A stretch of DNA of 64,000 bases from Chloroflexota bacterium (GTDB lineage Bacteria; Chloroflexota; UBA6077; SHYK01). Position numbers and translations under genes: made by a program. The notes below the pieces were generated by a model. That model was given only the letters and a program-made list of their open reading frames with translations, made no database searches and was not told the DNA's origin. The stretch is taken from positions 7,432-71,431 of the forward strand of contig JAXDLH010000288.1 of the NCBI GenBank assembly GCA_034666705.1, written 5' to 3'. This document shows positions 6,518 through 38,874 of this stretch, in pieces. How positions within the stretch are numbered: position 1 is the stretch's first letter; each line of letters opens with the position of its first letter.

Positions 6518-6561
6518 CTCGCCGCTCGAACCACTCATACCCTTCGGGCATTCATGAACTG

Positions 6562-7869
6562 CTATTCCGTGAGTGCGTCGCACCGCATGAACATTCCGGG
6601 GTTGCGCTCGATGGAGTACGGAACGAAGCGGGTCGTAGGATCGAGCAGATTCGAGAAAAAGTTGCCGACGAGCGTCGCCTTGACTCGGCCGCCGAGCACG
6701 CCATCGCGGATCGCCAGTGCCTGCGACGCCACGACCGAGTAGTCGCCCTTCGCCGAGTCCTGCGTATGCATCCCCAGCAGCTCGAAGACGAGCAGACCGC
6801 GCTCGATCGAGGCGAGCGCCGCCTCCCAGCTCGGCTCCAGAGCCGCAACGATCTGCAAGGCCGAGCCCTGGCGCGGCAGCGGACTCGGCGGCATCCCCGC
6901 GCGCCGGGCATATTTCAGATCGAGCATCGGGCTCACGAGGCTCCCGTGCTCGACGAGCGGCGTCCGGCCGCCGGGCACACCCTCGCCGCTGCATGGCGAG
7001 GTCCCCGACTCGAACGGCAGCGTCGTATCGAGCACGAAATCAACGTCCGGGCCCGCCACCTGCCGGTGCGTATGAAAGTCGTGGAGCGTGTAGGCCGATT
7101 GGCCGTTCACCACGCCAGCTCCGGCCAGGTTCGCCATCACGAACTTGCCGATGAACGAGCTGGCTGTCGCGGTGGGCATCAGCACCGTGAGTGGTCCACC
7201 TGCCAACGTGTCCTGGTGGGCAAGCCGCGGCACGGTGCGGGCAACGCTGCCGATCACCTCGTCCAACTCGTCCACGGCGATGAGTCGCCGCTTGCTCCAC
7301 GAGCGCGAGTAGACCTCATCGGCGCTGACCCACACGCTGCAACTCGTCTCTTCGTACGTTACGTCCAGCCCATGCGAGCTTCGCAGCACGGCCTCGCCGA
7401 CCGACGCGCCGGCGCCGCCGTCGACCAGCTCACAGCCGGCTGCGCCGCACTCACGCCGCGCCCGCTCGAGCATCGCGAACATGGGCGACGGGTCACCGCC
7501 CACCTGGGCGGCCACCGCCGGGTCGTACACCTCGACGCTCGGCATGGGCTGCGAGCCCAGTACCTCCGGCCGCCACTCGTCGTCATACGCGGCGGCCCGC
7601 CACTCCGTAAGGCGCTGGTCCAACTCTTCGAACGAGCGACTATCGAGGTCGCCGTAGGAGATGCGGCCGTCGTCCCACACCAGGTAAAGGCCGCCGCTCG
7701 TGCCAATCGAGGCCCCCGGCGCATCGTAGGGGCCGCCGATTCGGTTGTGCTTCATGCCGACGCCGACCGAGCGCCGCTCGCTGAGTGCGAGGCGCCACTC
7801 GGCGACGCGCGCGCCATCCACGCTCGGGCTGGTGGCGAGCCGCTCGGTCATGCGGTCGGCCAACTCCAT
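6562..7869 (-). CDS. pmbA: TldD/PmbA-family metallopeptidase (PmbA/TldE-like)
   Basis: TldD/PmbA fold signatures are present. The start at ATG 7869 overlaps the tldD stop (TGATG), and the N-terminus MELADRMTERLA is typical of PmbA. The track ORF extends to 8328. Confidence 0.7.
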   Translation of the reverse strand: MELADRMTERLATSPSVDGARVAEWRLALSERRSVGVGMKHNRIGGPYDAPGASIGTSGGLYLVWDDGRISYGDLDSRSFEELDQRLTEWRAAAYDDEWRPEVLGSQPMPSVEVYDPAVAAQVGGDPSPMFAMLERARRECGAAGCELVDGGAGASVGEAVLRSSHGLDVTYEETSCSVWVSADEVYSRSWSKRRLIAVDELDEVIGSVARTVPRLAHQDTLAGGPLTVLMPTATASSFIGKFVMANLAGAGVVNGQSAYTLHDFHTHRQVAGPDVDFVLDTTLPFESGTSPCSGEGVPGGRTPLVEHGSLVSPMLDLKYARRAGMPPSPLPRQGSALQIVAALEPSWEAALASIERGLLVFELLGMHTQDSAKGDYSVVASQALAIRDGVLGGRVKATLVGNFFSNLLDPTTRFVPYSIERNPGMFMRCDALTE

Positions 7870-9356
7870 CAGCCTTCGCCGCCAATCGACACGTCCGGGT
7901 TGCGCTCGAGGACGAGGAAGGCGTGCGAGCCGCCGCTCGACGGCACCGTCTGCCCGGACTTGCCGCAGAAGCCCATCGCATCGAGATAGAGCGGGCCGAG
8001 GCCAGCAATGATCGACTGCAAGGCCGAGAGCGATCGCCCACTGAAGATGGCCGGCTTGCACGCACGCACACCGTCCGTCAGGTCGTAGATCGCCGCGCAG
8101 TTGAAGACGAAGTCGCCCGTCTTGGGATTGACCTGACCGCCACGATAGCCAGACAGGTAGAGCGTTCGCGCTCTCGTATTCAGCAGACCGTGCTGCTGAA
8201 GCACTCCGCGCAACACCGCTGGCGTAACCTCGTCGAACGGCATGACGAGAGGCAGTGGCTGATCCACCTCGATGCGAATGTTCGTCATGCGGGGCAGCGG
8301 ACCGGAGAATACGCTCTCCGCCCGGCATGCCCCCGAGACTGGCATGCCCGCCTGACCTGCCGAGAAGAGGTCGCCCAGACCGGCGCGGAGCACACCGTGA
8401 TCGACGATGGAGACCGTCTCTCGGGTCAGGCCGTTGGCGCTGATCGGCTGGTAAGCGAAGTCGCCCACGAGCGGCCCGTCGATGATCGACACGTCCGCTG
8501 GCGCGACGCGCTCGCCGACCTTGAGGCGTCCCTCTGCACCGAGGAGGGAGGTCTCCATGCCGTCGCTCTCAGAAGCATGCCCGAACGCTTCGTGGGCCAG
8601 CCCTTTCGCAAGCGCGTAGTCGATCACGAGCCGCGCTGGGCCACTCGGAGCCGACGGCGCATCGACGGTCTGCACCGCCCGGTCGCGCGAAACGCGAAAC
8701 CGCTGCGCCAGCCGCCGCCGCGGTTCGGCATCGGTCAGAATCCTGGCGTCGCCACCAGACAGGCTGGCGCGCGCGGCAACCGCTCCCGAGGACCCACGCA
8801 CGGTCAGCTCGTGCGAAACGTAGGCGTTCGGGGTACTGAACTGCACGTCCGTGCCATCGCTGCGGGCAATCCGCCACTCCACGTCGGTCACACTGTGGCT
8901 GGTCCGCAACGGCGCGGTGCCCGCCTCCCCGCGCGCTTCCTCGTGTACGTCGCGGACGGCACGCTGGTGCGCCTCCATCGAGCGGCCATCCGCGGCTTCC
9001 GCCGGGGACGGGACCAGGTGAACCGGCTGCGCTTCCACCTCGAAGATGGCTCGGTTCACGTCGGCTCCGAACCGCCCGGAGGTACGCGCCGCCGCGGCCG
9101 CCATGTCGACGAGCTGCGCGACGGTGCGCGGATCGGTCGCATCGCTGGAAGCGAAGCCCAACCAACCCTCAGATGTCACGGCGTGGACGCCAATGCCGCG
9201 TGAGCGGCGCCCGCTCTGGCCCTCGATCGTGCCATCCTGAAAGGTGAAGCTGCGATACTGCGCATCTTGAAAGCGGGCAATGACGTGGACGCCGAGCTGA
9301 CTCGCCCGCTGGAGCGCGGCGGTAACCGAGCCGTCGAGTGAGGAGACGCGCATCAT
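7869..9356 (-). CDS. tldD: TldD metallopeptidase
   Basis: Has the HEAFGH zinc motif, GRLKVGERVA and other TldD-family stretches, and is coupled to pmbA. Confidence 0.8.
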   Translation of the reverse strand: MMRVSSLDGSVTAALQRASQLGVHVIARFQDAQYRSFTFQDGTIEGQSGRRSRGIGVHAVTSEGWLGFASSDATDPRTVAQLVDMAAAAARTSGRFGADVNRAIFEVEAQPVHLVPSPAEAADGRSMEAHQRAVRDVHEEARGEAGTAPLRTSHSVTDVEWRIARSDGTDVQFSTPNAYVSHELTVRGSSGAVAARASLSGGDARILTDAEPRRRLAQRFRVSRDRAVQTVDAPSAPSGPARLVIDYALAKGLAHEAFGHASESDGMETSLLGAEGRLKVGERVAPADVSIIDGPLVGDFAYQPISANGLTRETVSIVDHGVLRAGLGDLFSAGQAGMPVSGACRAESVFSGPLPRMTNIRIEVDQPLPLVMPFDEVTPAVLRGVLQQHGLLNTRARTLYLSGYRGGQVNPKTGDFVFNCAAIYDLTDGVRACKPAIFSGRSLSALQSIIAGLGPLYLDAMGFCGKSGQTVPSSGGSHAFLVLERNPDVSIGGEG

Positions 9357-12229: not shown

Positions 12230-12335
12230 TGCGTACGCCATTCCTATTGAGCGTCTTGCAGGAGCAATGGCCGTGCAGGTCGATGCCCCTGGAGGGCAAC
12301 ACCGCATCAGCGATCGGCGCGCGTCAGCGTTTGGG

Positions 12336-12416
12336 TGCCGAGGGCGGGACTCGAACCCGCACGCCTTGCGGCCGCGCTTTTTAAGAGCGCTGCGTCTGCC
12401 ATTCCGCCACCCCGGC
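12336..12416 (-). tRNA. tRNA-Leu (anticodon UAA), type II with long variable arm
   Basis: The reverse complement reads GCCGGGGTGGCGGAATGGCAGACGC-A-GCGCT-CTTAAAA-AGCGC-(variable arm)-GCGGGTTCGAGTCCCGC-CCTCGGCA. The acceptor stem pairs (one G-U), the T-loop is GGTTCGAGTCC, and it closely resembles E. coli tRNA-Leu. CCA is not encoded. Confidence 0.8.
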
Positions 12417-12488
12417 ACGGGTGGTGTGCGTCGAGAAGCCCCGAGCGAGCGGTGTGATTATGCCCGAAGGGGAGACCCAGGCTCCGCG

Positions 12489-13404: not shown

Positions 13405-13725
13405 AAGGTTGCGCAGGAGGAGAGTAAGCCAGATTCTGTTCATGGCGACCATCTGTCTGTTCGATCCGTGAACCGAACTCCGCTCTGTGCGGATGCCCCG
13501 TACCCTGGCCTCGGCGAGCAGCGTCAACGGCCATGCTTCGGGTTGCAGCGGGGGGGATTACCCTTTTCACTCCCCGATCGAGGTCGAGGCCTTGGTCTCT
13601 GTGGCTCTAACCGCCGGTTACCCGGCCCCGGCTTACGCCAGGCACCCTGCTCTATGCTGTCTGGACTTTCCTCTCCGACGTGGTCGGAGCGGCCGCCCTT
13701 CCTCCCGCTTGGTGACCGACCCTTT
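13405..13725 (-). ncRNA. rnpB: RNase P RNA (bacterial type A-like)
   Basis: Reverse complement contains GGAGAGGAAAGTCCAGAC...ATAGAGCAGGGTGCCTGGCGTAAGCC...ACAGAATCTGGCTTAC. These correspond to the conserved GGAAAGTCCGGGC, AGGGCAGGGTGCC.GGTAACGCC and ACAGAA.CCGGCTTA blocks, and the P4 helix co-varies (GTCCAGA/TCTGGCT). The ends are approximate and were placed by P1 pairing (GCGGGAGGA/TCCTCCTGC). Confidence 0.7.
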
Positions 13726-26021: not shown

Positions 26022-27299
26022 TTACGTGCTGGATGCGCTCGCGGAGGCAGACGCGGCTGTGGCAGGGGCATCATTGCTTGGCAGGGTGACGACGAAGCGC
26101 GTCCCCCCTTTGGGCGGTGAATCAGCGCGAATCTCGCCACCGTGTGACTCGACAATCTGGCGCGTTATGTAGAGTCCGAGCCCCATTCCTGATTTGTTCG
26201 TGTCCGCGCTGCCTCGGTAGAAACGCTCGAAGATCCGGTCGCGGGCCTCGGCTGGAATCCCAGCTCCCTCGTCGGTAACAGATAGCTCAATCTGGTCCCC
26301 GATCCGCCGCAGCACCGCGCGAATCTCGCCCCCTGCGGGGCTGTACTTAATGGCGTTATCGATCAAGTTCGTCAGCACCTGATCGATGCGTAGCGGATCG
26401 ACGACCGCATACAGCTCGTCCGGCGTGTCGACCACGATGCGATGCTCGTCCGCGAAGGTTTGCTCGTTTGCGGCGACGTCTCTGAGGAGGCGCACGAGCT
26501 CCGTGCGCTCTGGATTCAGCTCGAGGCGTCCCGCGCGAACCCGCGTGAGGTCGAGCATTTGCGTGATAAGCCGCGCGAGCTTGCCCGATTGCTGCTCGAT
26601 CACGTGCAGACCGCGGCGCATGCTATCTGCGTCGACCGCGTCGTCTCGCCCAAGGCGGCGGAGCATGAGTTGAGCTGAGCCGCGCAGGCTCGTGATGGGC
26701 GTCTTCAGCTCATGGGCGGCCATCGAGATGAACTCTTCGCGGATCTGCGTTGCTTCTTCGAGTTGGCGGTTCGTCTCTGCCAGTTCGTCGACGCTGTGCC
26801 GCAATTTGGCTGTGGCCTGGTCGACTCGCTCCTGGAGGCCTTCCGAGAGCGTCCGCAGCTTGCTGTTTGCCTCGTTCAACTCACCCAGTCGTTCGCGCAG
26901 CGCTCTGCCGAGGACGCCCCGCTCGATCGCCCGCGCCACCGTGGCCTTCAACTCATCGACGTGGCACGGTTTGATCAAGTAATCGTACGCGCCCTCACGA
27001 ATCGCGTCGATCGCGGACTCGAGCGAGGCATATCCGGTCAGCATCACGGACGGTGTCTCTGGCGACCGTTCCCGCAGCGCAGTCAGCAGCTCGAGACCGG
27101 ATGAGCCCTCGATGCGCAAGTCGGTCAAGAGCAGATCGAAGCGCTCATTGCGGATATGCGTCAACGCGTCGGCCGCATTCCCTGCGGCGACGACCTCGTA
27201 CCCCTCCTGCTCCAGGATTGCGGCGAGTGTCGTCAGGACGTTCTCCTCGTCGTCGACCACGAGCAGGCGTGGCGTCTCTGAGCCGAGCGCGGTGTTCAT
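26022..27299 (-). CDS. hybrid two-component protein: N-terminal receiver domain fused to HisKA/HATPase histidine kinase
   Basis: Receiver domain (LLVVDDEENV...DLLLTDLRIEG...MLTGY), a coiled-coil, the H-box AAHELKTPITSL, and the ATPase N/G boxes (NLIDNAIKYS, GMGLGLYI). Overlaps the upstream kinase by 4 bp. Confidence 0.8.
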   Translation of the reverse strand: MNTALGSETPRLLVVDDEENVLTTLAAILEQEGYEVVAAGNAADALTHIRNERFDLLLTDLRIEGSSGLELLTALRERSPETPSVMLTGYASLESAIDAIREGAYDYLIKPCHVDELKATVARAIERGVLGRALRERLGELNEANSKLRTLSEGLQERVDQATAKLRHSVDELAETNRQLEEATQIREEFISMAAHELKTPITSLRGSAQLMLRRLGRDDAVDADSMRRGLHVIEQQSGKLARLITQMLDLTRVRAGRLELNPERTELVRLLRDVAANEQTFADEHRIVVDTPDELYAVVDPLRIDQVLTNLIDNAIKYSPAGGEIRAVLRRIGDQIELSVTDEGAGIPAEARDRIFERFYRGSADTNKSGMGLGLYITRQIVESHGGEIRADSPPKGGTRFVVTLPSNDAPATAASASASASST

Positions 27300-29320
27300 T
27301 GATCACCCTCTGGCGGCAGGGCGATGATGAAGGTCGTGCCGTGGCCAGGAGTACTGCGAACCTTGATCTGGCCACCGTGATTTTGCATGATGCCCTGGCT
27401 TACCCAGAGCCCGAGGCCCGTGCCCTTCACGTCGCTCTTGGTGGAGTAGAACGGCTCAAAGATATGGGGCAGATGCTCCTCGAGGATGCCGGTGCCCGTG
27501 TCCTGAATCTGGACGAGCACGTACCGCCCCGCGAGAAACTCTGGGTCGGTCTCCCGGGAAAGCCAGGTGGAGATTTTCAGCTTGCCGCCATCCGGCATCG
27601 CCTGCTGGGCGTTCAAAATCAGGTTCAAGAACACCTGCTTGAGCTGATCCGCGGGAGCGAGCACTGGCGGCACATCGCGGTCGAGATTGAAATCGACGGT
27701 CATATTGTGGCGCCGCAACTCGCGATCGAGCAGCGACACCGATTCCTCCAGCACCGTATTCACATTCGTCGGCACTTTGACCACCGCCGGCCGGTAGAAG
27801 CCAAGCATCTGTTGGATGATGCCTGACACCCGGTCCGTCTCCTTGCTGGCGATCTGCAGGAATTTGGCGTTCGGGTCGTCCGGCGCCGTGCGTGACACGA
27901 CGAGGTAGAGTGCGTTCTTGATCGCCTCGAGCGGGTTATTGATCTCATGGGCGACCGTAGCGGCGAGTCGACCCACCGCGGCGAGCTTCTCCGACTCGAA
28001 GAGCTGCTGCTCGACGGTGCGGCGCTCGAGCTCGCGAATCTTCGTCAGGTCGTGGAGAATAGACACCAGCGCAGTGGTCTGTCCCAGCTCGTCTACCACC
28101 TCGGTCGCCATGACGCTCATCGTGAGGTTCTCGCCAGTAGTCGGATCGACGAGCTGGATCTCTCCGCGCTGCTCCCGTGGGGCCTCGAGACGAAGCTGGG
28201 AGAGGAACGAGCTAAGCTTCGCTTCGTTGGCCAGCAACACCGTCGACCGGACCCGCACCTCGCGCCGCTCGGTCTGCAGCAGGCGTCCGGCGGGCTGGTT
28301 CATCAAGATGATCTCGCCCGCGGCGTCGGTAACCACGATCGGATCCGCCACGTTGGCCAGAATCAGGTTCAGTCGATCCCGCTCGCGCTGCGCCTCGTCC
28401 CCAGCGTTCTGCAGGTCGGTCAGAATGCGCTGCAACTGGTCGGCCGCGCGCCGCAGGTCGGTAACGTCGCGCAACACGGATACGAGGCCACGCTCCCCCG
28501 TGCGCAGGTTCGTCGCCTGCTGGCAGATCACCTCGAAGAGCAGCTCGGTACCCTCGAGGGGATCGACGAGGGTAAGCTCGCGCGCCAGTCCCGCGCCTTG
28601 ATCGATCGCGAAGCTGGAGAGCGCGGCGGTGAAGAGAAAATAATTGAGCTCAATCGCGCGGCGCTTGCCGGGGCTGTCATCAGGATTGGGCTTGAGCAGC
28701 CGCTCCGCGTGGATGTTGTAGAACATGATGTTGTTCTGCTCATCGCTGAGCATCACCGGGTCATGCACGGCGTTCAGCATCCACCATAGCCATTCTTTCT
28801 CAATGGCGTGCTGTTCACCGGACTCACGCAGGCGCTTCGCCTCGACACGCTCGGCCACCGTCACCACGAGGCGTCCTGCATATGGCAAGAGCTCGTTCAC
28901 CTCGGCTTCGGTAATCGGCCGATCCTTATCGACGATGAGGACCCCTGAGGCAGGGAGCAGCGGCACCGCCGCGAACGCCAGCATGCCGCAGTCGGCGTAG
29001 TACACCCGGTCCGCCTCAGGGATACGGCCATCCCGCAGCGCATCGTCGACGCGCAGCGGTTTGCCGCTCACGAACGCCTCGCGCAGGGGACCCCGCAGCT
29101 CCTCATTCGGCTCGCGCAGCGCCGCGATGAGCTCGTGAGGAACGTTGACGCCGACCGCGCCCTCGACGATTCCCAATTCGCCGTCGATAAGCGCGACGAA
29201 CGCGCGGTTGTAGCCAAGCGCACGCGCTAACTCGTCGAGCGTCGGCACCACCAGCTCATCCAGCTCGGTGAGACGAGCCGCGAGCCCACGCGTCTCATAG
29301 AGCTCAAGCAGGTCACGCAT
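27296..29320 (-). CDS. cytoplasmic GAF/PAS multi-sensor histidine kinase
   Basis: N-terminal GAF-like region, PAS-like repeats, the H-box VAHEINNPL and an HATPase_c domain (DTGTGI...GTGLGLWVSQGI). There are no transmembrane segments. Confidence 0.8.
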   Translation of the reverse strand: MRDLLELYETRGLAARLTELDELVVPTLDELARALGYNRAFVALIDGELGIVEGAVGVNVPHELIAALREPNEELRGPLREAFVSGKPLRVDDALRDGRIPEADRVYYADCGMLAFAAVPLLPASGVLIVDKDRPITEAEVNELLPYAGRLVVTVAERVEAKRLRESGEQHAIEKEWLWWMLNAVHDPVMLSDEQNNIMFYNIHAERLLKPNPDDSPGKRRAIELNYFLFTAALSSFAIDQGAGLARELTLVDPLEGTELLFEVICQQATNLRTGERGLVSVLRDVTDLRRAADQLQRILTDLQNAGDEAQRERDRLNLILANVADPIVVTDAAGEIILMNQPAGRLLQTERREVRVRSTVLLANEAKLSSFLSQLRLEAPREQRGEIQLVDPTTGENLTMSVMATEVVDELGQTTALVSILHDLTKIRELERRTVEQQLFESEKLAAVGRLAATVAHEINNPLEAIKNALYLVVSRTAPDDPNAKFLQIASKETDRVSGIIQQMLGFYRPAVVKVPTNVNTVLEESVSLLDRELRRHNMTVDFNLDRDVPPVLAPADQLKQVFLNLILNAQQAMPDGGKLKISTWLSRETDPEFLAGRYVLVQIQDTGTGILEEHLPHIFEPFYSTKSDVKGTGLGLWVSQGIMQNHGGQIKVRSTPGHGTTFIIALPPEGDQ

Positions 29321-29359: not shown

Positions 29360-29641
29360 TTACGTCAGGGGTTCGCGGCGGGCCTCCTGGGGCGGCACAA
29401 CCTCTTCCCGAGGGGCCGGCGCCGCAATCTGCGGACGTGCCACCGGCGAGGTAATACCGACCGCCTCCGCGTACTTCAGGTACGTATCGATCGAGGCGAC
29501 GACGATGCGCGCCTCGACGGTGATGAGGTCGATGCCGACCAGCGAGATGCGCACCCACGCATCGATCACGATGCCTTTATCGAGCACCCGATCGAGCACG
29601 TCGATGAGGCTCGTACCTCCGGGATGTCGCTCTACGGCCAT
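29360..29641 (-). CDS. gvpA: gas vesicle structural protein GvpA
   Basis: [51 protein letters not shown] is the canonical GvpA core. Confidence 0.9.
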
Positions 29642-29643
29642 GA

Positions 29644-30006
29644 TTACCTCCTGCCTCTCGGCTGTCGCTGGCGTGTGGGACGAACGGGAGCGGGCTCTGG
29701 CACTGCCGCGCCGGCGACCTGCCGCTCGAGGGCGGCAATCCGCGCCTCCAGGGCGCTAGCGGATTCCACCTCGTCCATTGCGGTGGTACTGAGAAAGTTG
29801 TCGCGTTTCCACCAATCGAGTCCGATCTCCTGCGCTTTGTCGATTGAGCATACGAGCAGACGGATGCGGACGGTGAGCAGCTCGACGTTGGCCAGCGAGA
29901 CCCGGATGTCACCAGCCACGACCAACCCCTTGTCCAGGACGCGGTCAAGAATATCGACGAGGCTCGTCGCGGCAGGTTGATCGCTGCGGCGGGGCTCCAT
30001 CATCAC
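29644..30006 (-). CDS. gvpJ: gas vesicle protein GvpJ (GvpA family)
   Basis: [52 protein letters not shown] matches GvpJ. Confidence 0.8.
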
Positions 30007-30659
30007 AGCAGTTGTCCAAGCGGCCCCAGGTCGACGTTTAGATCCGCGTCAGTCAGGCCGAACTGATCGCGAATCTCGGCGAGTTTCTCCTCAAGCTGCA
30101 TGAGCGCCAGCCCCATCTGTTCTATCTGGGCGTCGGAGAGGCCGGTTCCCTCCATGCGGCGGAGCGCCTGGTGCTCCAGCACCTGACGCAGCAGCTCCAC
30201 GAGCGTCAAGACCAGGCGCGCGAGGCTCGACTCAGGTCGCTCTCCTTCCGGGATCACCACCGGTGCGACCCGCCGTGCCGGCCGGCCGCTCGCAGGGTCC
30301 CCAACGGTTGAAGGCGCGCCGAGGATCTCCCCTGGCTTGACCCTTGCAGATGGCCTCGCGCCCGGTCGCGCCAGGTGCGCTGCGAGCATATCCCCATGTC
30401 GCGGACGCACCGGAGATCGCGGCGTCATTGCGTCACGGCTCCCACCGTCCTCCTCCATCGCTCGCCGCATCGTTTCGACGGACGAGACCACAAGGTTCAG
30501 GCCAAGGTACACGAGATCGACACCCCCGAGTGAGACGACGGCCTGACCGGCGAGCACTGCACCGTTGTCGAGCAGGCCATTGACGGCGTCGACGAGCGCG
30601 ATCCGCTCGGCGAGGGCCCCCTCAAGCTGCGCCACGTTGGCCCTCCACCTTGCGGACAA
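30003..30659 (-). CDS. gvpK: GvpA/J-family N-terminal domain fused through a disordered linker to a GvpK domain
   Basis: The N-terminal ~65 aa are GvpA/J/S-like (LVDAVNGLLDNGAVLAGQAVVSLGGVDLVYLGLNLVVSSVE). The C-terminal ~80 aa match GvpK (LARLVLTLVELLRQVLEHQALRRMEGTGLSDAQIEQMGLALMQLEEKL...[13 protein letters not shown]). It is a single uninterrupted 218-codon ORF. Confidence 0.7.
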   Translation of the reverse strand: MSARWRANVAQLEGALAERIALVDAVNGLLDNGAVLAGQAVVSLGGVDLVYLGLNLVVSSVETMRRAMEEDGGSRDAMTPRSPVRPRHGDMLAAHLARPGARPSARVKPGEILGAPSTVGDPASGRPARRVAPVVIPEGERPESSLARLVLTLVELLRQVLEHQALRRMEGTGLSDAQIEQMGLALMQLEEKLAEIRDQFGLTDADLNVDLGPLGQLL

Positions 30660-31512
30660 ACGAATAGGGCGGCCAAGGACCGCTCAACTCCAGGTCGAGC
30701 CCGGCCGTCTGCGCTCGATCCAGGAGGCCGGCGAACACGGCGCCGAATGCCTCACGATGGTCTCGATCCACGAGGAACGCGAGTTTTGCGACGAGTGGAT
30801 GCGGATCGGGAGTCTCTGATACTACGGCATCCTGTTGCACGTCAACGCTCGCCGCGCCCAATTCCCGGGCCGCGCCGCTGAGCTCCTCGTCGAGGAAGCC
30901 GGATGCCTCAGTGGCGAGCAGCGACTCGCGACGTCGCCGCAGCAGATAGGCCTTGCCGGGCGCGCTGCGCTCGATCTCCACGGCCAGCTCGCGCAGAACC
31001 GCGCTGTTTTGTTCCGCAGCTCGCCACACGCGCGCCGGATCCGCATACGCCTTCAGCCCCCATTCCTCCCGGTCGGCGACCTTTTCAAGCAATGCGTGCA
31101 GCTCACTCTCCTGGCCTTCCAGCATGGCGCGCACTCCCTCCGGGCTGCGATAGACCGCCCCGAAGCCCAGCGGCACGATGGGTCCCGCCTGCTCGAACAG
31201 CGTGCGCACCACCGCCTCGTGGCGTACCGCGTATTCAGCAAGCTTCGGCAGATCGGCCGTCAGTGCGTTCAACGGCTCTTCGTCGAAGACGGCGGCAGGC
31301 ACAAGACTGGTCGCTGCGATCAGGCCAGCATGGTTGATGCCAGTGACAGAGGCAAAGGGCACAATACCGAGCACATTACGGCCCGCCAGCACATCCTTCG
31401 AGCTAGGGCCGGCCAGAAGCACGCCGTACACGTACAGCAGCTCGTCGCGTTTCGTGGCCGCAGATCGAGCGGCGCTCTGGCGCGGGGTGCCGGCTTCCAT
31501 GTGACCTGCCAT
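30622..31512 (-). CDS. gvpL: gas vesicle protein GvpL/GvpF family
   Basis: The LYVYGVL start motif and the SGPWPPYSF C-terminal motif are typical of GvpF/L. Confidence 0.8.
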   Translation of the reverse strand: MAGHMEAGTPRQSAARSAATKRDELLYVYGVLLAGPSSKDVLAGRNVLGIVPFASVTGINHAGLIAATSLVPAAVFDEEPLNALTADLPKLAEYAVRHEAVVRTLFEQAGPIVPLGFGAVYRSPEGVRAMLEGQESELHALLEKVADREEWGLKAYADPARVWRAAEQNSAVLRELAVEIERSAPGKAYLLRRRRESLLATEASGFLDEELSGAARELGAASVDVQQDAVVSETPDPHPLVAKLAFLVDRDHREAFGAVFAGLLDRAQTAGLDLELSGPWPPYSFVRKVEGQRGAA

Positions 31513-31520
31513 TGGGGGAT

Positions 31521-31772
31521 TCAGCGCTGCGCTTGCCGCTGTCGAAAGGCACGCGCGGCACGGAGCCGCGCCATGATCTCAGCTTCGGCTTCGGTGTATT
31601 CGTCCTCGGTGATCTCGCCATCGTCGAGTCGGACTTGCAGCAGGAGCAGGTCTTCGCGAATACGCTCCTCGTCGTACAGCTCACGGTCGGCCATATCGCC
31701 GATGGTATTGAAGACGAATTTGACGCCGGCGACTGGCGCGGTCAGTGGTGCCAACAGCAGCTTGAGCAACAT
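31521..31772 (-). CDS. gvpG: gas vesicle protein GvpG
   Basis: 83 aa with the GvpG pattern (LLL.PL..P...V.....E.YDEERIREDLLLLQVRLDDGEITEDEY). Confidence 0.7.
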   Translation of the reverse strand: MLLKLLLAPLTAPVAGVKFVFNTIGDMADRELYDEERIREDLLLLQVRLDDGEITEDEYTEAEAEIMARLRAARAFRQRQAQR

Positions 31773-32599
31773 CAGGACATGGCCCCGGCGCGCTCGAGCT
31801 TGAGCCGAATGTTCACGAAATTGTAAGGTGGCCAGGGGCCGGTGTACTGAAATCGCAGCTTGCCCTCATATCGTTGCGCGATCTCCTGTACCTTCTGGTC
31901 GAACTCAGTCGATTTATCCCGCTCGACGAGGAAGGCGGCATTCAGGATCATCTTGTCGCCGATTGGCTTGTTGTGCCGCGAGGCCGTCGCACAATCGCGG
32001 AGGTGGTCGTAGACCTCTCGCACGTACGTGTCAGACCGTTCCGCGAGGGCCTGCTCGACGAGCCGGCCAAGCTGCATCCGGGCAAAATAGGTTGACGCGA
32101 GCCGATTCGAGAGGATCTCTTCCTTCAGCCGGCGGATGTCTTCGCTCTCCTGCTCGACTTCCTTCAGCACGGTTTCAGGGTCCCAGTTGACCTTTAGACC
32201 AAACTCGATCTTATCCTTGAGTTTGCGCAATACGTCCTGAAGCGCTTCAGACGTGTCCTTCAAGAACTCCACAACGTCATCTTCCGTGCGGAAAACGGTG
32301 CCGAAGCTCATCGGGATGACCGTGAACTCCTTCATTACGGTTTCAATGGCATGCTCATGGGCGAGCGCGTTCTCGCGTGTGGGGTCGTACATCACGACCG
32401 GAGTGTCCGATACCACTGCGGCAAGTGCGCCACGGTGAATCGTATAAAGCTCGTCGTTTCGGCCGCCGATCCCGAGCGGGCCAAAGCCCTGCGGGGCGTC
32501 GCACTCGATGATGCAGTACACGTACTTGCCCTCATCGGCCACCCGTGGCGATCCCGAATCTTCCGTGACGACGGCCGCGGCACGCTCATCCAGATTCAT
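31772..32599 (-). CDS. gvpF: gas vesicle protein GvpF
   Basis: KYVYCII start motif and the C-terminal TGPWPPYNF; GvpF/L fold family. Confidence 0.85.
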   Translation of the reverse strand: MNLDERAAAVVTEDSGSPRVADEGKYVYCIIECDAPQGFGPLGIGGRNDELYTIHRGALAAVVSDTPVVMYDPTRENALAHEHAIETVMKEFTVIPMSFGTVFRTEDDVVEFLKDTSEALQDVLRKLKDKIEFGLKVNWDPETVLKEVEQESEDIRRLKEEILSNRLASTYFARMQLGRLVEQALAERSDTYVREVYDHLRDCATASRHNKPIGDKMILNAAFLVERDKSTEFDQKVQEIAQRYEGKLRFQYTGPWPPYNFVNIRLKLERAGAMS

Positions 32600-32878: not shown

Positions 32879-32910
32879 CGCTGATCTTCCACAACCCAGG
32901 TGCCGCGGAA

Positions 32911-32936
32911 GCAGAGGATGAGTCCTCTGCTTTTTT
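32911..32936 (+). terminator. attenuator-type intrinsic terminator (GCAGAGGA-tgag-TCCTCTGC followed by TTTTTT)
   Basis: 8-bp GC-rich stem, a 4-nt loop and a U6 tract, 45 nt upstream of the DAHP synthase start. Confidence 0.6.
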
Positions 32937-32980
32937 GTTGCCCATTGAGGAACGAGATTACAACACATCAGGAGGGACGC

Positions 32981-34024
32981 GTGATCATCGTGATGAAGCC
33001 AACCGCCACCCAGAGCGACATCGACCACATCCTCGATCGATTGCATCAGGACGGTTGGGACGGAGAGGTCTCACATGGGACCGAGCGTACCGTGATTGGC
33101 GTCATCGGCACCGGCTTCCCGCCCGACTACCAGGATCACTTCGAGGTGATGGCGGGCGTCGAGTCGGCCACGCGGATCTCCAAGCCGTACAAGCTCGCCA
33201 GCCGCGACTTCAAACCAATCGACACGGTGATTGACGTCAACGGGATCAAGGTCGGCGGCGGCAGCGACTTCGTGGTGATGGCCGGGCCCTGCTCGGTCGA
33301 GGGGCGCGAGCAGCTTATGACGACGGCGAATGCCGTCCAGGAGCATGGAGCCTGCATGCTGCGCGGTGGCGCCTATAAGCCACGCACGTCGCCCTATAGC
33401 TTCCAGGGGATGGGCGAATCCGGACTGAACCTCCTCTCGGAAGCGCGCGACAAGACTGGCCTGCCCGTGATCACTGAGGTAATGGAGCCAGGCGACGTCG
33501 ATCTGGTCGAGAGCTTCAGCGACGTGCTGCAGATCGGCACGCGCAATATGCAGAACTTCCCGCTGTTGAAGCGCGCGGGCCGGTCGAGCAAGCCGGTCAT
33601 GCTCAAGCGTGGCATGTCGGCCACGATTGAAGAGTGGCTCATGGCCGCGGAGTACGTCCTTTCCGAAGGGAACAAGAACGTCATGCTCTGTGAGCGTGGC
33701 ATCCGGACCTTCGAGCCGATGCTGCGCAACACGCTCGATCTCGCCGTCGTGCCGATGCTACGCCGCTTGACGCACTTGCCGATCATCGTCGATCCGAGCC
33801 ACGGCACCGGCAAATGGTACCTGGTGAAACCAATGGCGCTCGCGGCGGCCGCGTGCGGCGCCGACGGCATCATCGTCGAGGTCCATCCCGATCCGGACAA
33901 TGCCTGGTCTGACGGTCCGCAGGCACTCACGCCAGCCAACTTCGCCGACATGATGCACTCGCTCGACGCCGTGGTCACCGCGACGGGCCGCCGCATGTGG
34001 TCGGCCGCAACGGCAACGGTCTAG
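32981..34024 (+). CDS. aroG: 3-deoxy-7-phosphoheptulonate (DAHP) synthase, type I-beta with N-terminal ferredoxin-like regulatory domain
   Basis: Strong resemblance to the Thermotoga-type DAHP synthase (IIVMKP...ERTVIGVIG...KPYKLASRDFKPIDTVIDVNGIKVGGG...IAGPCSVEGREQL...GADGIIVEVHPDPD). GTG start with GGAGGGA upstream. Confidence 0.85.
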   Translation: MIIVMKPTATQSDIDHILDRLHQDGWDGEVSHGTERTVIGVIGTGFPPDYQDHFEVMAGVESATRISKPYKLASRDFKPIDTVIDVNGIKVGGGSDFVVMAGPCSVEGREQLMTTANAVQEHGACMLRGGAYKPRTSPYSFQGMGESGLNLLSEARDKTGLPVITEVMEPGDVDLVESFSDVLQIGTRNMQNFPLLKRAGRSSKPVMLKRGMSATIEEWLMAAEYVLSEGNKNVMLCERGIRTFEPMLRNTLDLAVVPMLRRLTHLPIIVDPSHGTGKWYLVKPMALAAAACGADGIIVEVHPDPDNAWSDGPQALTPANFADMMHSLDAVVTATGRRMWSAATATV

Positions 34025-34174
34025 GCGGATGGCACGGGCACTCGCACCCCGGGCCCCAACCCTCGAGGCCCGTCGTGGGCACTGGCTGTGGGGTAGAGTG
34101 CTCGTGTGGGGCGACGGGTCGACGTCGCCCGTCGCTGGCTTCGGGGTCGACCCCGAGCGCCGGTCGCTGGGCTG

Positions 34175-35032
34175 ATGCCGCGCCTTGCCTACGTGATCGG
34201 GCACCCGATCCGTCACTCGCTGTCGCCGGTGATGCACAATGCCGCCTTCGCGGCGTGTGCCATCGACGGCGAGTACCGGGCAATAGACCTCATGCCGGAA
34301 CAGGTCGCTGACTGGCTGACGGAGCTCAGGGGGTCGAACGCCTACGGCTGCAACGTCACAGTGCCGCATAAGGAGATGGTGGCGCGCCTCGTCGACGACG
34401 TAGCCGGGGACGCGGTACTTGCCGGCGCTGTGAACACGGTGTGCCGCCACCCCACGGATTCGCGGCGGCTCGTCGGTATCAACACAGATACCATCGGGTT
34501 TCGCCGATCGCTCGCGGAAGAGGGCGGGATCTCGTGCCAGGGCCAGCACGTCGTGCTGCTCGGCGCGGGCGGGGCCGCGCGGGCGCTCGCCGTGGTGGCG
34601 CTGCAAGACGGTGCCGCGGAGCTCGTCGTCGTAAACCGCACGGAGGCAAGGGCCGAAGTGCTCCTCGCATCACTGAATGCGCTTGTTGGGCCGTGCCGAA
34701 CCCGAGCGGTGGCCCTGGGCGACCCAACGCTGGAGGCGGAGCTTGCGAGCGCGACGCTCGTCGTCAACGCGACGTCGGTGGGACTCGGCTCGACCGAGTT
34801 GCCTGCCGATCCAGCATCGGTCTCAACGGGCTGTATGGTAATGGACATTATCTATAACCCGCGCGCCACCGCTTTCCTCATCGCGGCAGCGCGTGCCGGC
34901 GCCCATACCGTCGGTGGCCTGGGCATGCTGGTCCATCAGGCGGGGGCCGCCTTCGAACAGTGGACCGGTGTCCGGCCGCCCGTCGAGGTGATGCGCGCCG
35001 CCGCCGAGCAGGCGCTTAGCATCCCCGCCTGA
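34175..35032 (+). CDS. aroE: shikimate dehydrogenase
   Basis: YVIGHPIRHSLSPVMHNAAF...NVTVPHK...GAGGAARA match AroE. ATG at 34175; the track ORF starts at 34106. Confidence 0.85.
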   Translation: MPRLAYVIGHPIRHSLSPVMHNAAFAACAIDGEYRAIDLMPEQVADWLTELRGSNAYGCNVTVPHKEMVARLVDDVAGDAVLAGAVNTVCRHPTDSRRLVGINTDTIGFRRSLAEEGGISCQGQHVVLLGAGGAARALAVVALQDGAAELVVVNRTEARAEVLLASLNALVGPCRTRAVALGDPTLEAELASATLVVNATSVGLGSTELPADPASVSTGCMVMDIIYNPRATAFLIAAARAGAHTVGGLGMLVHQAGAAFEQWTGVRPPVEVMRAAAEQALSIPA

Positions 35033-35062
35033 GGCACGACTCTCCCAACGCCCGCGAGGTGT

Positions 35063-36694
35063 GTGATGAACGCTCCAGAGGTCGCAATAGCCGACGTCGG
35101 CCGAATATTTCTGGTCGGCCTGAGCGGCAGCGGTAAGAGCACCCTCGGGGTGCTCCTCGCCGAGCGCCTGGGCCTTCCGTTCATCGACACCGACGCGGCG
35201 ATCGAGCGCACGGAGGGAGCATCGGTAGCCAACATCTTCGCGACACGAGGCGAGGCGGCGTTTCGCGCGCTCGAGCGCGACGCCGTGCTCGCCTCGTGCC
35301 GCGGGACTAGCAGCGTCGTGGCCACAGGTGGCGGTGCGGTCTTGAGCGACGAGGTCCGCGACGCCATGCTGCATACCGGACGCGTGATCTGGCTTGACGC
35401 ACCGGTCGAGGTACTGGCGGGGCGCCTCGCGGGGATGACTGATCGACCGCTTCTCGCGGACGATGTGTATTCGCGGCTCGTCGCGCTGGCGGAGCAGCGA
35501 GCATCGCTCTACGCCGCGGCCCACCTCCGGGTGGACGCTGCGGTCCACCCGGAGATCGTGATGAGCACCATTCTGCGCGCCCTCGACCGGCTTCCCGACC
35601 TGAATCCAGTCTGGGTCCAGACGCCGAGTCAAACGTACCCGGTTTACGTCGGGAGCGGGGTGCTGGCGTGCGCCGGGGCCCTGCTGGGGGCGCACGGGCT
35701 CGACGCTCCGCTGCGCATCATCGCGGACGAGCGTGTGGCAGAACTGCACGGCGCGGCGGTGCGCGAGGCGCTCGCCGGCTTCGAAACGAGTTGGTATCTC
35801 GTGCCAGCCGGCGAAGAGCACAAGTCAGTCGCGCAGGCCGTGGAGCTCTATGGTCGTCTGCTGGCTGATCGCCCCGAGCGGCGCGACGTCATTGTGGCAC
35901 TGGGCGGTGGAGTGATCGGCGACCTGGCGGGCTTCATCGCCGCGACCTTGCTGCGCGGCATGCGCTTCATACAAATCCCCACGACGCTCCTTTCACAGGT
36001 CGACTCTAGCGTCGGCGGCAAGGTTGGCGTCGACCACCCCAGCGGCAAGAACCTGATCGGCGCGTTCCACCATCCCAATCTCGTCCTGGCGGACGTAGCC
36101 GTGCTCCGGACGCTGCCACCGCGCGAAGTCGCCGCCGGGTGGGCGGAGGTCGTGAAGATTGCGGTGATCCAGGATCGAGTGCTCTTCGACGATCTCGAGG
36201 CCCACGTCGACGAGATGCGGGTGCTCGAGCCGGATATCACGACCCGCGCCATTCGCCGCGACGTCGAGCTCAAGGCACGGATCGTGGACCAGGATGAACA
36301 TGATCTCTTGGGCCTGCGCGCTATCTTGAACTATGGGCACACTCTCGGCCACGCGATCGAGGCTGCCACAGGCTACGCAGCGTATCGGCACGGTGAGGGC
36401 GTGGCGATCGGTATGGCCGGCGCGGCGCACATCGCCGAGGCGATGGAGCTGCATCCGGCCGCCGACGCGCAACGGCAACGAGCGGTCCTGGAGCGCCTGG
36501 GATTACCGCAGCACGTTGAGGGCGCCACGCGCGAGATGCTGCGTGCCGCGATGGGTCTCGACAAGAAGCGCGAGGGCGGCCGCCAGTTGTGGGTCCTGCC
36601 GACGGGGATCGGCAGTGTGTGCACGTCGAAAGACGTACCCGAGCAGATCGTCGACGAGGCGATCGCGTTGATTACGCGGTCCAGTCACCCATGA
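35063..36694 (+). CDS. aroB: bifunctional shikimate kinase / 3-dehydroquinate synthase (AroK-AroB fusion)
   Basis: N-terminal P-loop shikimate kinase (LVGLSGSGKSTLG...FIDTD) fused to a full AroB domain (VIVALGGGVIGDLAGF...GGKVGVDHP...GHAIE). Confidence 0.8.
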   Translation: MMNAPEVAIADVGRIFLVGLSGSGKSTLGVLLAERLGLPFIDTDAAIERTEGASVANIFATRGEAAFRALERDAVLASCRGTSSVVATGGGAVLSDEVRDAMLHTGRVIWLDAPVEVLAGRLAGMTDRPLLADDVYSRLVALAEQRASLYAAAHLRVDAAVHPEIVMSTILRALDRLPDLNPVWVQTPSQTYPVYVGSGVLACAGALLGAHGLDAPLRIIADERVAELHGAAVREALAGFETSWYLVPAGEEHKSVAQAVELYGRLLADRPERRDVIVALGGGVIGDLAGFIAATLLRGMRFIQIPTTLLSQVDSSVGGKVGVDHPSGKNLIGAFHHPNLVLADVAVLRTLPPREVAAGWAEVVKIAVIQDRVLFDDLEAHVDEMRVLEPDITTRAIRRDVELKARIVDQDEHDLLGLRAILNYGHTLGHAIEAATGYAAYRHGEGVAIGMAGAAHIAEAMELHPAADAQRQRAVLERLGLPQHVEGATREMLRAAMGLDKKREGGRQLWVLPTGIGSVCTSKDVPEQIVDEAIALITRSSHP

Positions 36695-37149
36695 CCACGA
36701 TCCTGGTCCTCCATGGGCCGAACCTGAGCATCCTCGGCCGCAGGCAGCCGGAGATCTACGGCACCACGACGCTCGAGACAATCGACGAGGCGCTGCGCAG
36801 TCGTGCCTCAGCCTGGGGCTGGGAGATCATCGCCGTCCAATCAAACCATGAGGGCGCATTGATCGACACGATCGAGAGCCACTACGAGCGTATCGAAGGC
36901 GTGCTCATCAACCCGGGCGCCCTGACCCACTACGGCCTGTCGCTGCGTGACGCACTCGCGGCGCTGACGGTGCCCATCGTCGAGGTACACCTCTCCAACA
37001 TCCACGCGCGCGCCGAGGAGTGGCGTCACCACTCCATCACCGGCGAAGTCGCCAAAGGGATCGTGTCAGGCTTCGGTTGGCGCTCCTACCTGCTCGGGCT
37101 CGACGCGCTCCGCGGCATCATCGACCCGGGGGCTAGCCCGCCCGCGTGA
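36691..37149 (+). CDS. aroQ: type II 3-dehydroquinate dehydratase
   Basis: ILVLHGPNLSILGRRQPEIYG...INPGALTHY...EVHLSNIHARE match AroQ. The ATG overlaps the aroB stop (ATGA). Confidence 0.9.
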   Translation: MTTILVLHGPNLSILGRRQPEIYGTTTLETIDEALRSRASAWGWEIIAVQSNHEGALIDTIESHYERIEGVLINPGALTHYGLSLRDALAALTVPIVEVHLSNIHARAEEWRHHSITGEVAKGIVSGFGWRSYLLGLDALRGIIDPGASPPA

Positions 37150-38787
37150 GCGGCGCCGCGGTCGTGGCCGCTCTGTCGCTGGCGCTTCATCCGAAGCCTC
37201 GACCGGCTCGCTCGACTGAACCTCCGCTTCCTGAGCCTCGCCCATCGGAAGCGCGAGTGGAGCATCGTGGCCGTTTGTGGTTATGAGCTCATCGTCGGAG
37301 CTGCTTGGGAGCTCTTCCGTTGCGGAGCTCTCTTCTGTCACGGCGCTCACATCGGTTCGCGCAGTGCCCCGGCCTCGTGACCGGCGACGCGGCCTCGGTC
37401 GCTCCGGCGGCGCCTCCGCGCTCGTGCCACTCTCGCCGGCAATTTCCGGCGACGATTCGATCTCGACATCATTGGCAGCGACTGGCTCGATCCCATTGGT
37501 CCCGGGCGGCTCTTCGAGCGCCCGCATGACGAGGGGGTGCCTGCGATTCAACCGGAAGATGTTGATGTCGCGGTACTCGCCGGTGATTCGATCGAGAATG
37601 GTCCGCGTGTCGGTGAGGAACATGCCGTCCTGGATCGCTTGATCGACGAGGTCGCTCAACTCGTTGAGCGTCATCGGGACGAGGCGAGACTCTGCGGCTC
37701 GATTCACGATGTAGTTGAACGACATGAATGGGCTGCCCTGCTCCAGCAGATCGACGAACCGCACGAGCTTCGTGAGACGTTCCTCGTCTACGGGATCGAG
37801 CTTGACCGTGGACCGCTGGACGACGGGATTCCGCAATGGCGGAGGAGGCGGGGTTTCTCCAATCCGCTGCACGGCCTCCTCGGCCTCGCGCTCAACCTCT
37901 TGCGGCGTCTCGACTGCGAGGCCGGTGTCGATCTCCTCGCCCGGCATGTACACGCGATCCGTGAGGCCAACAGTTTGGGTCTTCACGATCCCGCGCCGCT
38001 CGGCCTCCTTCATAAAGTCCTTGAACTTCGAGTAGCCATAGGCCTGCTCGTCGAAGCTGCCAAGGCGGCTGGCCAGGAGCAGCTTGACCTGCGCGAACAC
38101 GTTGGGCCGCCGCTTCTCGCGTACGTACTTCACGACCTCGCCGAGGACCTTGAACGCCTCGTCAACGGCGACGAGAGGTGCGGCCACGGGAGCTGGCGCC
38201 GGTGTGGGTGCATGAGGCGGCGCCGTGCTGGCCGCCACCAGCGGCGCCGGGCGCCGCGCAGGGGCCGGATCGACGTCCACGTCGTACGCGATGTACTGGT
38301 CGGCGCTGCTGGTGAGCATCCAACTCGTGTTCCACGAGGCGCCGATGATGACCACGCGCTTGCCGTGCGTGCGCAGGGTATTGACGAGATGGATAAAGTC
38401 GCCGTCGCCGGTGACAAAGACGAACGTTGCCACGCTGGGGTTCAGGTAGGCGAACTCCACCACGTCGACGGCGAGCTTGATGTCCACGGAATTCTTGCGG
38501 CGGGGCAGTCCGTCGGTCGTGGCATCGCCGGGCCCGACGAAGATCGTGGGGACGTAGATCGGCTCGATGCCCACGGAGTAAAGATCGTTGGGATCGCGGA
38601 GGTTGTGGCCCTCCTGCCAGTTGGCGTACGCCTTAGCGGTCACCACCCGGCCAAATCGCCCGGCCGCATCCTTGAGCGCCTGAACGTTGGGAAGCCGGTT
38701 ATCGCGGTTAAGCAGGCTGTACTTGATGTTCTCCCAGTCGATGAACATCGCGACGTCGCCGGAGGGCGACGACGAGGGAGCAGTCAA
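37066..38787 (-). CDS. NYN (LabA-like) domain plus OST-HTH/LOTUS domain protein with Arg/Ser-rich C-terminal repeats
   Basis: N-terminal NYN fold (MFIDWENIKYS...FVFVTGDGDF), a central OST-HTH-like segment, and a C-terminal acidic region with a duplicated ERPRPRRRSRGRG. The start is taken at TTG 38787, which has GGAGG 7 nt upstream. Confidence 0.6.
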   Translation of the reverse strand: MTAPSSSPSGDVAMFIDWENIKYSLLNRDNRLPNVQALKDAAGRFGRVVTAKAYANWQEGHNLRDPNDLYSVGIEPIYVPTIFVGPGDATTDGLPRRKNSVDIKLAVDVVEFAYLNPSVATFVFVTGDGDFIHLVNTLRTHGKRVVIIGASWNTSWMLTSSADQYIAYDVDVDPAPARRPAPLVAASTAPPHAPTPAPAPVAAPLVAVDEAFKVLGEVVKYVREKRRPNVFAQVKLLLASRLGSFDEQAYGYSKFKDFMKEAERRGIVKTQTVGLTDRVYMPGEEIDTGLAVETPQEVEREAEEAVQRIGETPPPPPLRNPVVQRSTVKLDPVDEERLTKLVRFVDLLEQGSPFMSFNYIVNRAAESRLVPMTLNELSDLVDQAIQDGMFLTDTRTILDRITGEYRDINIFRLNRRHPLVMRALEEPPGTNGIEPVAANDVEIESSPEIAGESGTSAEAPPERPRPRRRSRGRGTARTDVSAVTEESSATEELPSSSDDELITTNGHDAPLALPMGEAQEAEVQSSEPVEASDEAPATERPRPRRRSRGRASPRVDDAAERVEPEQVGAPTEA

Positions 38788-38874
38788 TATGTGCCTCCAG
38801 GAGTTTTCGACAAAAATGGGCAAGTGTCTGGCGGAGGCCGGCGCGACAGTCCGCAACCTCGGCAATCCGCTGCC

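Follow-up and report, generated by a model that had tools for sequence, protein, structure and literature searches.

A GvpS-type domain fused to GvpK in a gas vesicle operon of a Chloroflexota bacterium

Does the gas vesicle cluster of a Chloroflexota bacterium encode, as one polypeptide, two accessory proteins that the described systems make separately, and, if it does, what would the joining achieve? The question arises in a 64,000-nucleotide (nt) stretch of contig JAXDLH010000288.1 (assembly GCA_034666705.1, positions 7,432 to 71,431 of the forward strand; this whole stretch is hereafter the window), in which a single open reading frame (ORF) joins a domain of the GvpA family to GvpK. To our knowledge, GvpK is essential in all gas vesicle systems tested and has no assigned role; GvpS/M proteins are thought to act at nucleation. 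An earlier reading of the window, the original prediction, had described the ORF as an unusual natural fusion and had named two alternatives, an artefact that removed a stop codon and a start for GvpK inside the frame. Here we examine the gene, its homologues and its surroundings. We hold it very probable, taking the explanation as a whole, that the gene is real and makes a single GvpS–GvpK polypeptide, with a proposed origin through the loss of a stop codon and a proposed role of its spacer as a tether.

One reading frame spans both domains

The ORF lies on the minus strand, which the original prediction had not stated. Its longest version in the ORF list covers 30003..30659 and encodes 218 amino acids (aa) from a TTG at 30659. 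Translation most likely begins at the GTG at 30635, because a Shine-Dalgarno sequence, GGTGGAGGG, stands 6 nt ahead of it and because the Joint Genome Institute (JGI) call P0001 and GenBank entry MEA2641115.1, both of 210 aa, start there, in agreement with the N-termini of homologues. From this start the fusion gene, gvpS~gvpK, occupies 30003..30635 and ends with a TGA at 30003-30005. Its product, MEA2641115.1, is annotated as a ‘hypothetical protein’ on an 80.8-kb contig of a Chloroflexota metagenome-assembled genome (MAG).

Both ends of the protein belong to known gas vesicle families. The Gas_vesicle profile (PF00741) matches aa 21-59 of the 218 over all its positions (1-39 of 39; 34.4 bits, gathering cutoff 25), inside the region of residues ~10-65 that had been likened to GvpA, GvpJ and GvpS. 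The GvpK profile (PF05121) matches aa 139-218 over positions 6-85 of 85 (107.5 bits, cutoff 25), almost exactly where GvpK had been placed (residues ~140-218). On the minus strand of the window, the GvpS-type domain spans 30435..30632 (Pfam core 30483-30599), and the GvpK domain, two long helices followed by short C-terminal helices, spans 30006..30245. Characterised GvpK proteins stand alone and are ~100-130 aa long, whereas GvpK here is the last third, at the C-terminus, of a chain of 210 aa.

Between the two lies a variable spacer of 72 aa (30246..30461 by the boundaries of hidden Markov models (HMMs)), rich in Pro, Ala, Gly and Arg. Its frame has no stop codon, and both alternative frames contain stops; its composition (15% Pro, 15% Ala, 14% Arg and 11% Gly) bears out the description of an uninterrupted Pro/Arg/Gly/Ala-rich linker. 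In an AlphaFold2 model for which 120 homologues were used, residues 68-133 (about 30237-30434) have no secondary structure and a predicted local distance difference test (pLDDT) score of 45-51. In the same model the GvpK domain is confident (pLDDT 84-91), with helices at 134-162 and 168-192, and the N-terminal domain takes a GvpA-like topology of helix, beta hairpin and helix (H2-23, E26-52, H53-67) at low confidence (pLDDT 48-60). Pfam, the open frame, the model and the homologues together confirm that one ORF encodes a GvpA-family domain and GvpK with a disordered linker between them.

Known structures cover the first half of the protein. When the family profile was compared with the PDB sequences, the N-terminal domain matched the solved GvpA chains 8gbs (E 2e-8) and 7r1c (E 6e-8), and no match ran through the GvpK domain; since GvpA chains alone were matched, there appears to be no solved GvpK structure. 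A Foldseek search of the AlphaFold2 model against the PDB returned generic helical hairpins only (best E 0.97).

The fusion gene is conserved

An assembly error, in which a stop codon or a frameshift between gvpS and gvpK was lost from the MAG, would be the simplest dismissal of such an ORF, and the frame by itself is no strong argument against it. From base composition we estimate a probability of ~27% that a 72-codon frame stays open by chance at 71% GC, so that the fusion ORF alone is not significant, and the GC content at third codon positions is lower in the spacer (0.69) than in the two domains (0.79-0.80). What lifts the frame above chance is its conservation in homologues.

First, two independent JGI metagenome assemblies, from other samples, carry the locus at 99.9% DNA identity and without indels (99.97% over 3.4 kb and 99.88% over 2.6 kb), and both encode an identical fusion protein. 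Second, both domains were found in 254 of 255 retrieved homologues, diverged sequences that encode them as a single product and always in the order from N-terminal domain to GvpK; PF05121 and PF00741 were present in all 120 of the homologues listed, which align to the window protein at 42-59% identity. Third, when 1.84 billion cluster representatives (50% identity) were searched with a profile, 408 matched at E<=1e-30, and the best 150 of these are fused, five of them truncated or partly matched and the remainder aligned nearly end to end. Additionally, a fused protein is present in RefSeq from the genome of the cultured bacterium Methylocella tundrae, and two Chloroflexota relatives at ~50% identity carry the fusion in the same eight-gene arrangement, including the two kinase genes that follow the operon. 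Independent assemblies without indels, 254 of 255 fused homologues and the synteny of relatives exclude the artefact for any practical purpose, and the comparisons confirm, as far as conservation can, that the fusion ORF is a genuine and selectively maintained gene. The word ‘unusual’ holds only when the comparison is with model systems that have been characterised; fused proteins are common in sequence databases.

The pattern of conservation differs along the protein. Across the 254 homologues the spacer has a median length of 72 aa, mostly 50-100 with a range of 30-158, and the window spacer has the median length. The spacers cannot be aligned with one another and are rich in Pro, Ala, Gly and Ser, whereas both flanking domains are conserved and hold many invariant residues, with most of the invariant family columns falling within GvpK.

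A second challenge grants the gene and denies the single protein: GvpK might also, or instead, be made from a start inside the spacer, which would leave the fusion of little consequence. An in-frame GTG GTG pair at residues 134/135 does stand just ahead of GvpK, with a weak GGCGGG upstream, and 21 of 42 fused genes have an in-frame start in the spacer that is preceded by a match of at least 4/5 to GGAGG. This test has no discriminating power, since true starts score no better than spacer positions. The internal start that had been suggested earlier, a GTG encoding VKPGEIL, reads GTC and is no start codon. Neither the spacer nor its border with GvpK has a conserved Met or Val column, and, with no stop codon in the way, the upstream start must yield the full-length protein. 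We therefore regard separate production of GvpK as improbable and retain the single polypeptide as the main product.

The N-terminal domain is of the GvpS/GvpM type

By its sequence and position, the fused N-terminal domain is a GvpS/GvpM-type paralogue and not GvpJ. Since gvpA and a J-type gene are each present in the operon in their own right, the fused domain is a third paralogue. The J-type gene, directly downstream of the fusion (29644..30006, minus strand), encodes a GvpA paralogue of 119-120 aa (PF00741, 62 bits) that matches the haloarchaeal GvpJ model of NCBIfam with 46.7 bits over positions 6-70 of 73, the C-terminal part included. It is followed by gvpA (29360..29641, minus strand), which encodes the major shell protein, 93 aa long, and scores 117 bits with the NCBIfam GvpA subfamily model (cutoff 100) and 62 bits with PF00741. 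This GvpA has a standard core of ~65 aa and a Pro/Ala/Glu-rich tail, and exceeds in length the GvpA chain of 8gbs (71 aa); the longer-tailed protein sits in a cluster where no gvpC was found.

The place of the fused domain, between gvpL and gvpK, is the gvpS slot of the Bacillus and actinomycete clusters, for which the published gene orders are gvp...FGLSKJ in Bacillus and gvpOAFG-JLSK in Streptomyces (PMC9501494). An HMM of the N-terminal domain, built from fused proteins only, identified the same slot in clusters where gvpS and gvpK are split: at 13 split genome loci the paralogue upstream of gvpK scored 54-75 bits, compared with 31-44 for the J and A paralogues. The S-position paralogue likewise scored 57 bits versus 29 in Spartinivicinus ruber and 49 bits versus 36 and 26 in Nonomuraea gerenzanensis, where the order is J-L-S-K.

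An identity as a copy of GvpJ, or of GvpA, is what automatic annotation would suggest. The Prokaryotic Genome Annotation Pipeline (PGAP) calls the fused proteins P0037, P0088 and P0108 and the Methylocella protein WP_197732044.1 ‘gas vesicle protein GvpJ’, and the NCBIfam scores of the N-terminal domain are all weak and close together (GvpM 22.9, GvpA 21.3 and GvpJ 16.2 bits). GvpM is nonetheless the best of four weak matches; it falls short of the 109-bit cutoff of its model, halo_gas_GvpM (NF046091), which is specific to haloarchaea. With distinct gvpJ and gvpA genes directly downstream, an HMM that favours the S-position paralogue in each split cluster examined and a slot that matches gvpS, we consider a GvpJ or GvpA identity very unlikely and the ‘GvpJ’ label misleading for the fused proteins. 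The naming of these proteins is a problem of its own: they are entered as ‘GvpJ’ or ‘hypothetical protein’, names that hide the only gvpK of their clusters. One JGI product name does describe the fused form, as ‘Gas vesicle protein K/Gas vesicle protein’.

Distribution and origin of the fusion

We surveyed the best 80 genome loci among GTDB species representatives. The fused form is present at 42 of them, in Chloroflexota (including Limnocylindria and Dehalococcoidia), in a large group of Gemmatimonadaceae and in one Acidobacteriota MAG. The split loci belong to other Gemmatimonadota, Longimicrobiales, Acidobacteriota, Dormibacterota, Methylococcales and Desulfomonilaceae. Most carriers of the fusion are MAGs from soil and sediment. 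Outside this set, the cultured alphaproteobacterium Methylocella tundrae encodes a fused RefSeq protein of 211 aa (WP_197732044.1) on a plasmid (locus L086, 5536-6171); the protein contains the two domains found by Pfam and a spacer rich in Pro.

Public fused proteins thus share one architecture, Gas_vesicle domain, Pro-rich spacer and GvpK in ~200-210 aa, whether from Methylocella or from the Chloroflexota and Dehalococcoidia MAGs (P0037, P0088 and P0108), and carry no annotation beyond the two names given above. The Chloroflexota proteins also share the whole operon of the window, whereas the Methylocella cluster additionally has gvpN and an Hsp20 gene.

How the fusion could have arisen is suggested by split clusters in which gvpS and gvpK lie in the same frame with a single stop codon between them, as on plasmid pA of Spartinivicinus ruber (L085, 5980-6516) and in Nonomuraea gerenzanensis (L087, 5950-6486). 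In Spartinivicinus the gap, read from the sequence, consists of the stop (TAA) and two codons. Because the genes are in frame with one stop between them, the loss of that one codon would fuse them, and we infer that the fusion arose in this way, from adjacent gvpS and gvpK. The single-stop arrangement could be a precursor of the fusion or a remnant of it, and readthrough of the stop could in principle give some fused protein in split species. In-frame S and K genes with a single stop also occur at the split loci L033 (6015-6554) and L038 (7800-8597).

Neighbour-joining trees of 41 taxa, made from S and K domains in one concatenated alignment of 132 columns (200 replicates), grouped the fused clade of Gemmatimonadaceae with split genes of Gemmatimonadota in 186 of 200 bootstraps, and recovered all fused forms as a single clade in none of the 200. 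These results suggest at least two independent fusions, or a fusion followed by fission. Since the trees rest on 80-132 aligned columns and a simple method, they are suggestive only.

Some split loci of Longimicrobiales and Gemmatimonadota (L037, 7080-8228; L060; L073; L052) have stop-to-stop GvpK ORFs of 315-383 aa with the domain at the extreme C-terminus. Judged by these ORFs, GvpK may carry a long N-terminal extension there without being fused to GvpS.

A proposed tether for GvpK

In published GvpA shell structures the C-terminal side of the GvpA fold faces outward. In the mechanism that we propose, the small, hydrophobic GvpS domain of the fusion protein would insert into, or seed, the nascent shell at the bicone tip, as has been proposed for the GvpS and GvpJ of Bacillus. 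The flexible spacer of ~70 aa would leave the fold on its outward-facing C-terminal side and anchor the soluble, helical GvpK domain at the cytoplasmic face, in a 1:1 ratio and at a high concentration close to the shell. In this place the tethered GvpK would help, with GvpL and GvpJ, to recruit GvpA. The fusion would in this way hard-wire a partnership of S and K that split systems reach through gene adjacency and translational coupling.

Interaction studies agree with such a partnership. In Bacillus megaterium, the interaction of GvpA2 with GvpL needs each of GvpS, GvpK and GvpJ, for which the authors propose a seeding role and a position at the bicone tip (PMC11445434). The gvpS and gvpK ORFs overlap in that species, and vesicles still form with all tag fusions of GvpS and with most of those of GvpK (PMC11445434). 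In Haloferax and Halobacterium, CBD-tagged GvpK (CBD, cellulose-binding domain) pulled down GvpM, and GvpK, GvpM and GvpJ all bind GvpL (PMC7688916). The fusion agrees with a nucleation complex of GvpS/M, GvpK, GvpJ and GvpL, and, as a feature of gene sequence, lends modest added support to the S–K pair. Widespread and probably recurrent, it is ‘Rosetta-stone’ evidence that the two proteins act together, in equal amounts and in close proximity, which agrees with the interaction maps of both Bacillus and Halobacterium.

Other observations, besides the short alignments behind the trees, weigh against parts of this explanation. Split green fluorescent protein assays in haloarchaea detected no direct K–M interaction (PMC7688916). 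Vesicles purified from Halobacterium showed no GvpK (PMC11445434, PMC7688916), a finding into which a permanently shell-tethered GvpK fits poorly. The AlphaFold2 model has a predicted template modelling (pTM) score of 0.43 and a low-confidence N-terminal domain, and predicts no confident contact between the S and K parts of the chain, a result that favours neither docking of the two nor its absence. The family-wide Shine-Dalgarno scan was crude and leaves room for extra initiation inside the gene. Lastly, a Pfam scan of 36 ORFs of the window revealed no gvpN, gvpC or gvpO.

A more specific reading would make the fusion a recurrent single-chain nucleation module, in which GvpK acts while tied, at 1:1, to a GvpA paralogue embedded in the shell, and the spacer is a tether or ruler that sets the reach of GvpK at the cytoplasmic face of the vesicle tip. 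It is prompted by fusions, probably independent, in at least two phyla and by a spacer length that stays near 70 aa while the sequence drifts. We put it forward tentatively, as a possibility that we would sooner doubt than accept. If true, it would fix the site at which GvpK acts, and engineered gas vesicle operons could shrink to six genes without gvpN.

Both halves of the protein are ordinary members of known families, and it is their architecture that is the variant part. In the literature that we searched, which included the main reviews, the interaction papers and Hurt et al. 2023 but covered the field incompletely and few subscription journals, we found no description of a natural S–K or J–K fusion. 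Nor did the same, incomplete search find gas vesicle clusters or gvpK described in Gemmatimonadota.

A compact operon without gvpN

The fusion gene is the fourth of six in a compact minus-strand operon of the order gvpF-G-L-[S~K]-J-A, in which adjacent genes overlap or abut. The first gene, gvpF (31772..32599), scores 264 bits with PF06386 and has GvpF as its best NCBIfam match; gvpG (31521..31772) scores 76 bits with PF05120; and gvpL (30622..31512), of the GvpL/GvpF family, scores 174 bits with PF06386 and has GvpL as its sole NCBIfam match. The end of gvpL and the beginning of the fusion gene share 14 nt, as they also do in the relative locus L001, and the stop of the fusion gene overlaps the start of gvpJ as TGATG. 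The same operon lies at 5983-9270 in L001 and at 5937-9283 in the second syntenic locus, L088.

Through the fusion, gvpA and the accessory functions F, G, J, K, L and M/S are all represented, as seven domains in six genes that score well above the Pfam cutoffs. The window holds one GvpK domain and three Gas_vesicle (PF00741) domains, namely the fused N-terminal domain, J and A; a second gvpK or gvpS-type gene was not found, so that the fusion is the sole gene of either kind in the window. gvpN, gvpC and gvpO were not found in the syntenic loci L001 and L088 either. Both gvpN, which encodes an AAA+ ATPase, and gvpC are listed as conserved across all clusters (PMC9501494).

The closest described arrangement is the pNL29 cluster of Bacillus (Priestia) megaterium, gvpAPQBRNFGLSKJTU, which has the local order F-G-L-S-K-J of the window. 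Its GvpS is small and GvpA-like and its GvpK is small and helical, and the two are encoded by adjacent, overlapping ORFs that are both essential (PMC11445434, PMC9501494). There, however, they are two polypeptides, where the window has one chain with a disordered spacer of ~70 aa, and the cluster has gvpN, R, T and U, all four missing from that of the window. Streptomyces coelicolor (gvpOAFG-JLSK) and Nonomuraea gerenzanensis, high-GC soil bacteria, share the L-S-K adjacency, and their listed order is without gvpN and gvpC; they differ in that S and K are separate (in Nonomuraea in a common frame with one stop between), that gvpO is present and that the order is A...J-L-S-K instead of F-G-L-SK-J-A. 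In the haloarchaeal order gvpFGHIJKLM, GvpM is the homologue of GvpS, and GvpK, GvpM and GvpJ bind GvpL in a proposed nucleation complex (PMC7688916, PMC9501494). The haloarchaeal genes run K-L-M, so that gvpK and gvpM are not adjacent, and no described system has them fused.

The missing genes raise the possibility that the cluster is a decaying relic, or one that serves no buoyancy, as has been suspected for the gas vesicle clusters of soil bacteria, and that the fusion is tolerated and not selected. The soil and sediment origin of most carriers fits such a relic, and in the literature that we searched gas vesicles are not reported from these lineages. Decay is at odds with the state of the genes: all seven domains stand well above the Pfam cutoffs, homologues that share about 45-59% identity keep invariant residues, diverged Chloroflexota have the six-gene operon and the neighbouring kinases in common, gene overlaps typical of translational coupling are kept, and the spacer is constrained in length while its sequence drifts. 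We judge a relic unlikely and favour a maintained cluster. A six-gene operon without gvpN could be of interest for the engineering of acoustic reporter genes.

Surrounding genes

Directly after gvpA, on the same strand, follow the genes of a GAF-PAS histidine kinase (27296-29320) and a receiver-HisKA-HATPase hybrid kinase (26022-27299), both assigned with Pfam. The same kinase pair follows gvpA in the Chloroflexota relatives L001/L002 (9305-12590 in L001) and L088 (9334-12673). The pair at 26022-29320 is likely to regulate the operon, and we treat the two kinases as candidate regulators. A scan for promoters and terminators turned up no persuasive promoter on the minus strand, and the terminator-like hairpins that it found were weak and lay within genes.

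The cluster is surrounded by chromosomal housekeeping genes, among them a row of shikimate pathway genes, IMPDH, PurA, HemA and MurG. The Rfam and tRNA matches in the window were limited to a bacterial class A RNase P RNA (13409-13708, minus strand, 132 bits) and tRNA-Leu(TAA) (12332-12417, minus strand), with nothing near the gas vesicle cluster. The shikimate row (32900-37149), divergent from gvpF, includes DAHP synthase, shikimate dehydrogenase and a type II dehydroquinase, and contains a further fusion: shikimate kinase and 3-dehydroquinate synthase are encoded by a single AroK-AroB ORF of 543 aa (35063-36694, plus strand). A minus-strand gene (37066-38865) encodes a 599-aa protein with an N-terminal NYN domain, a predicted RNase, and a long C-terminal half of low complexity, rich in Pro, Ala and Glu, that contains two near-identical ‘ERPRPRRRSRGR’ motifs.

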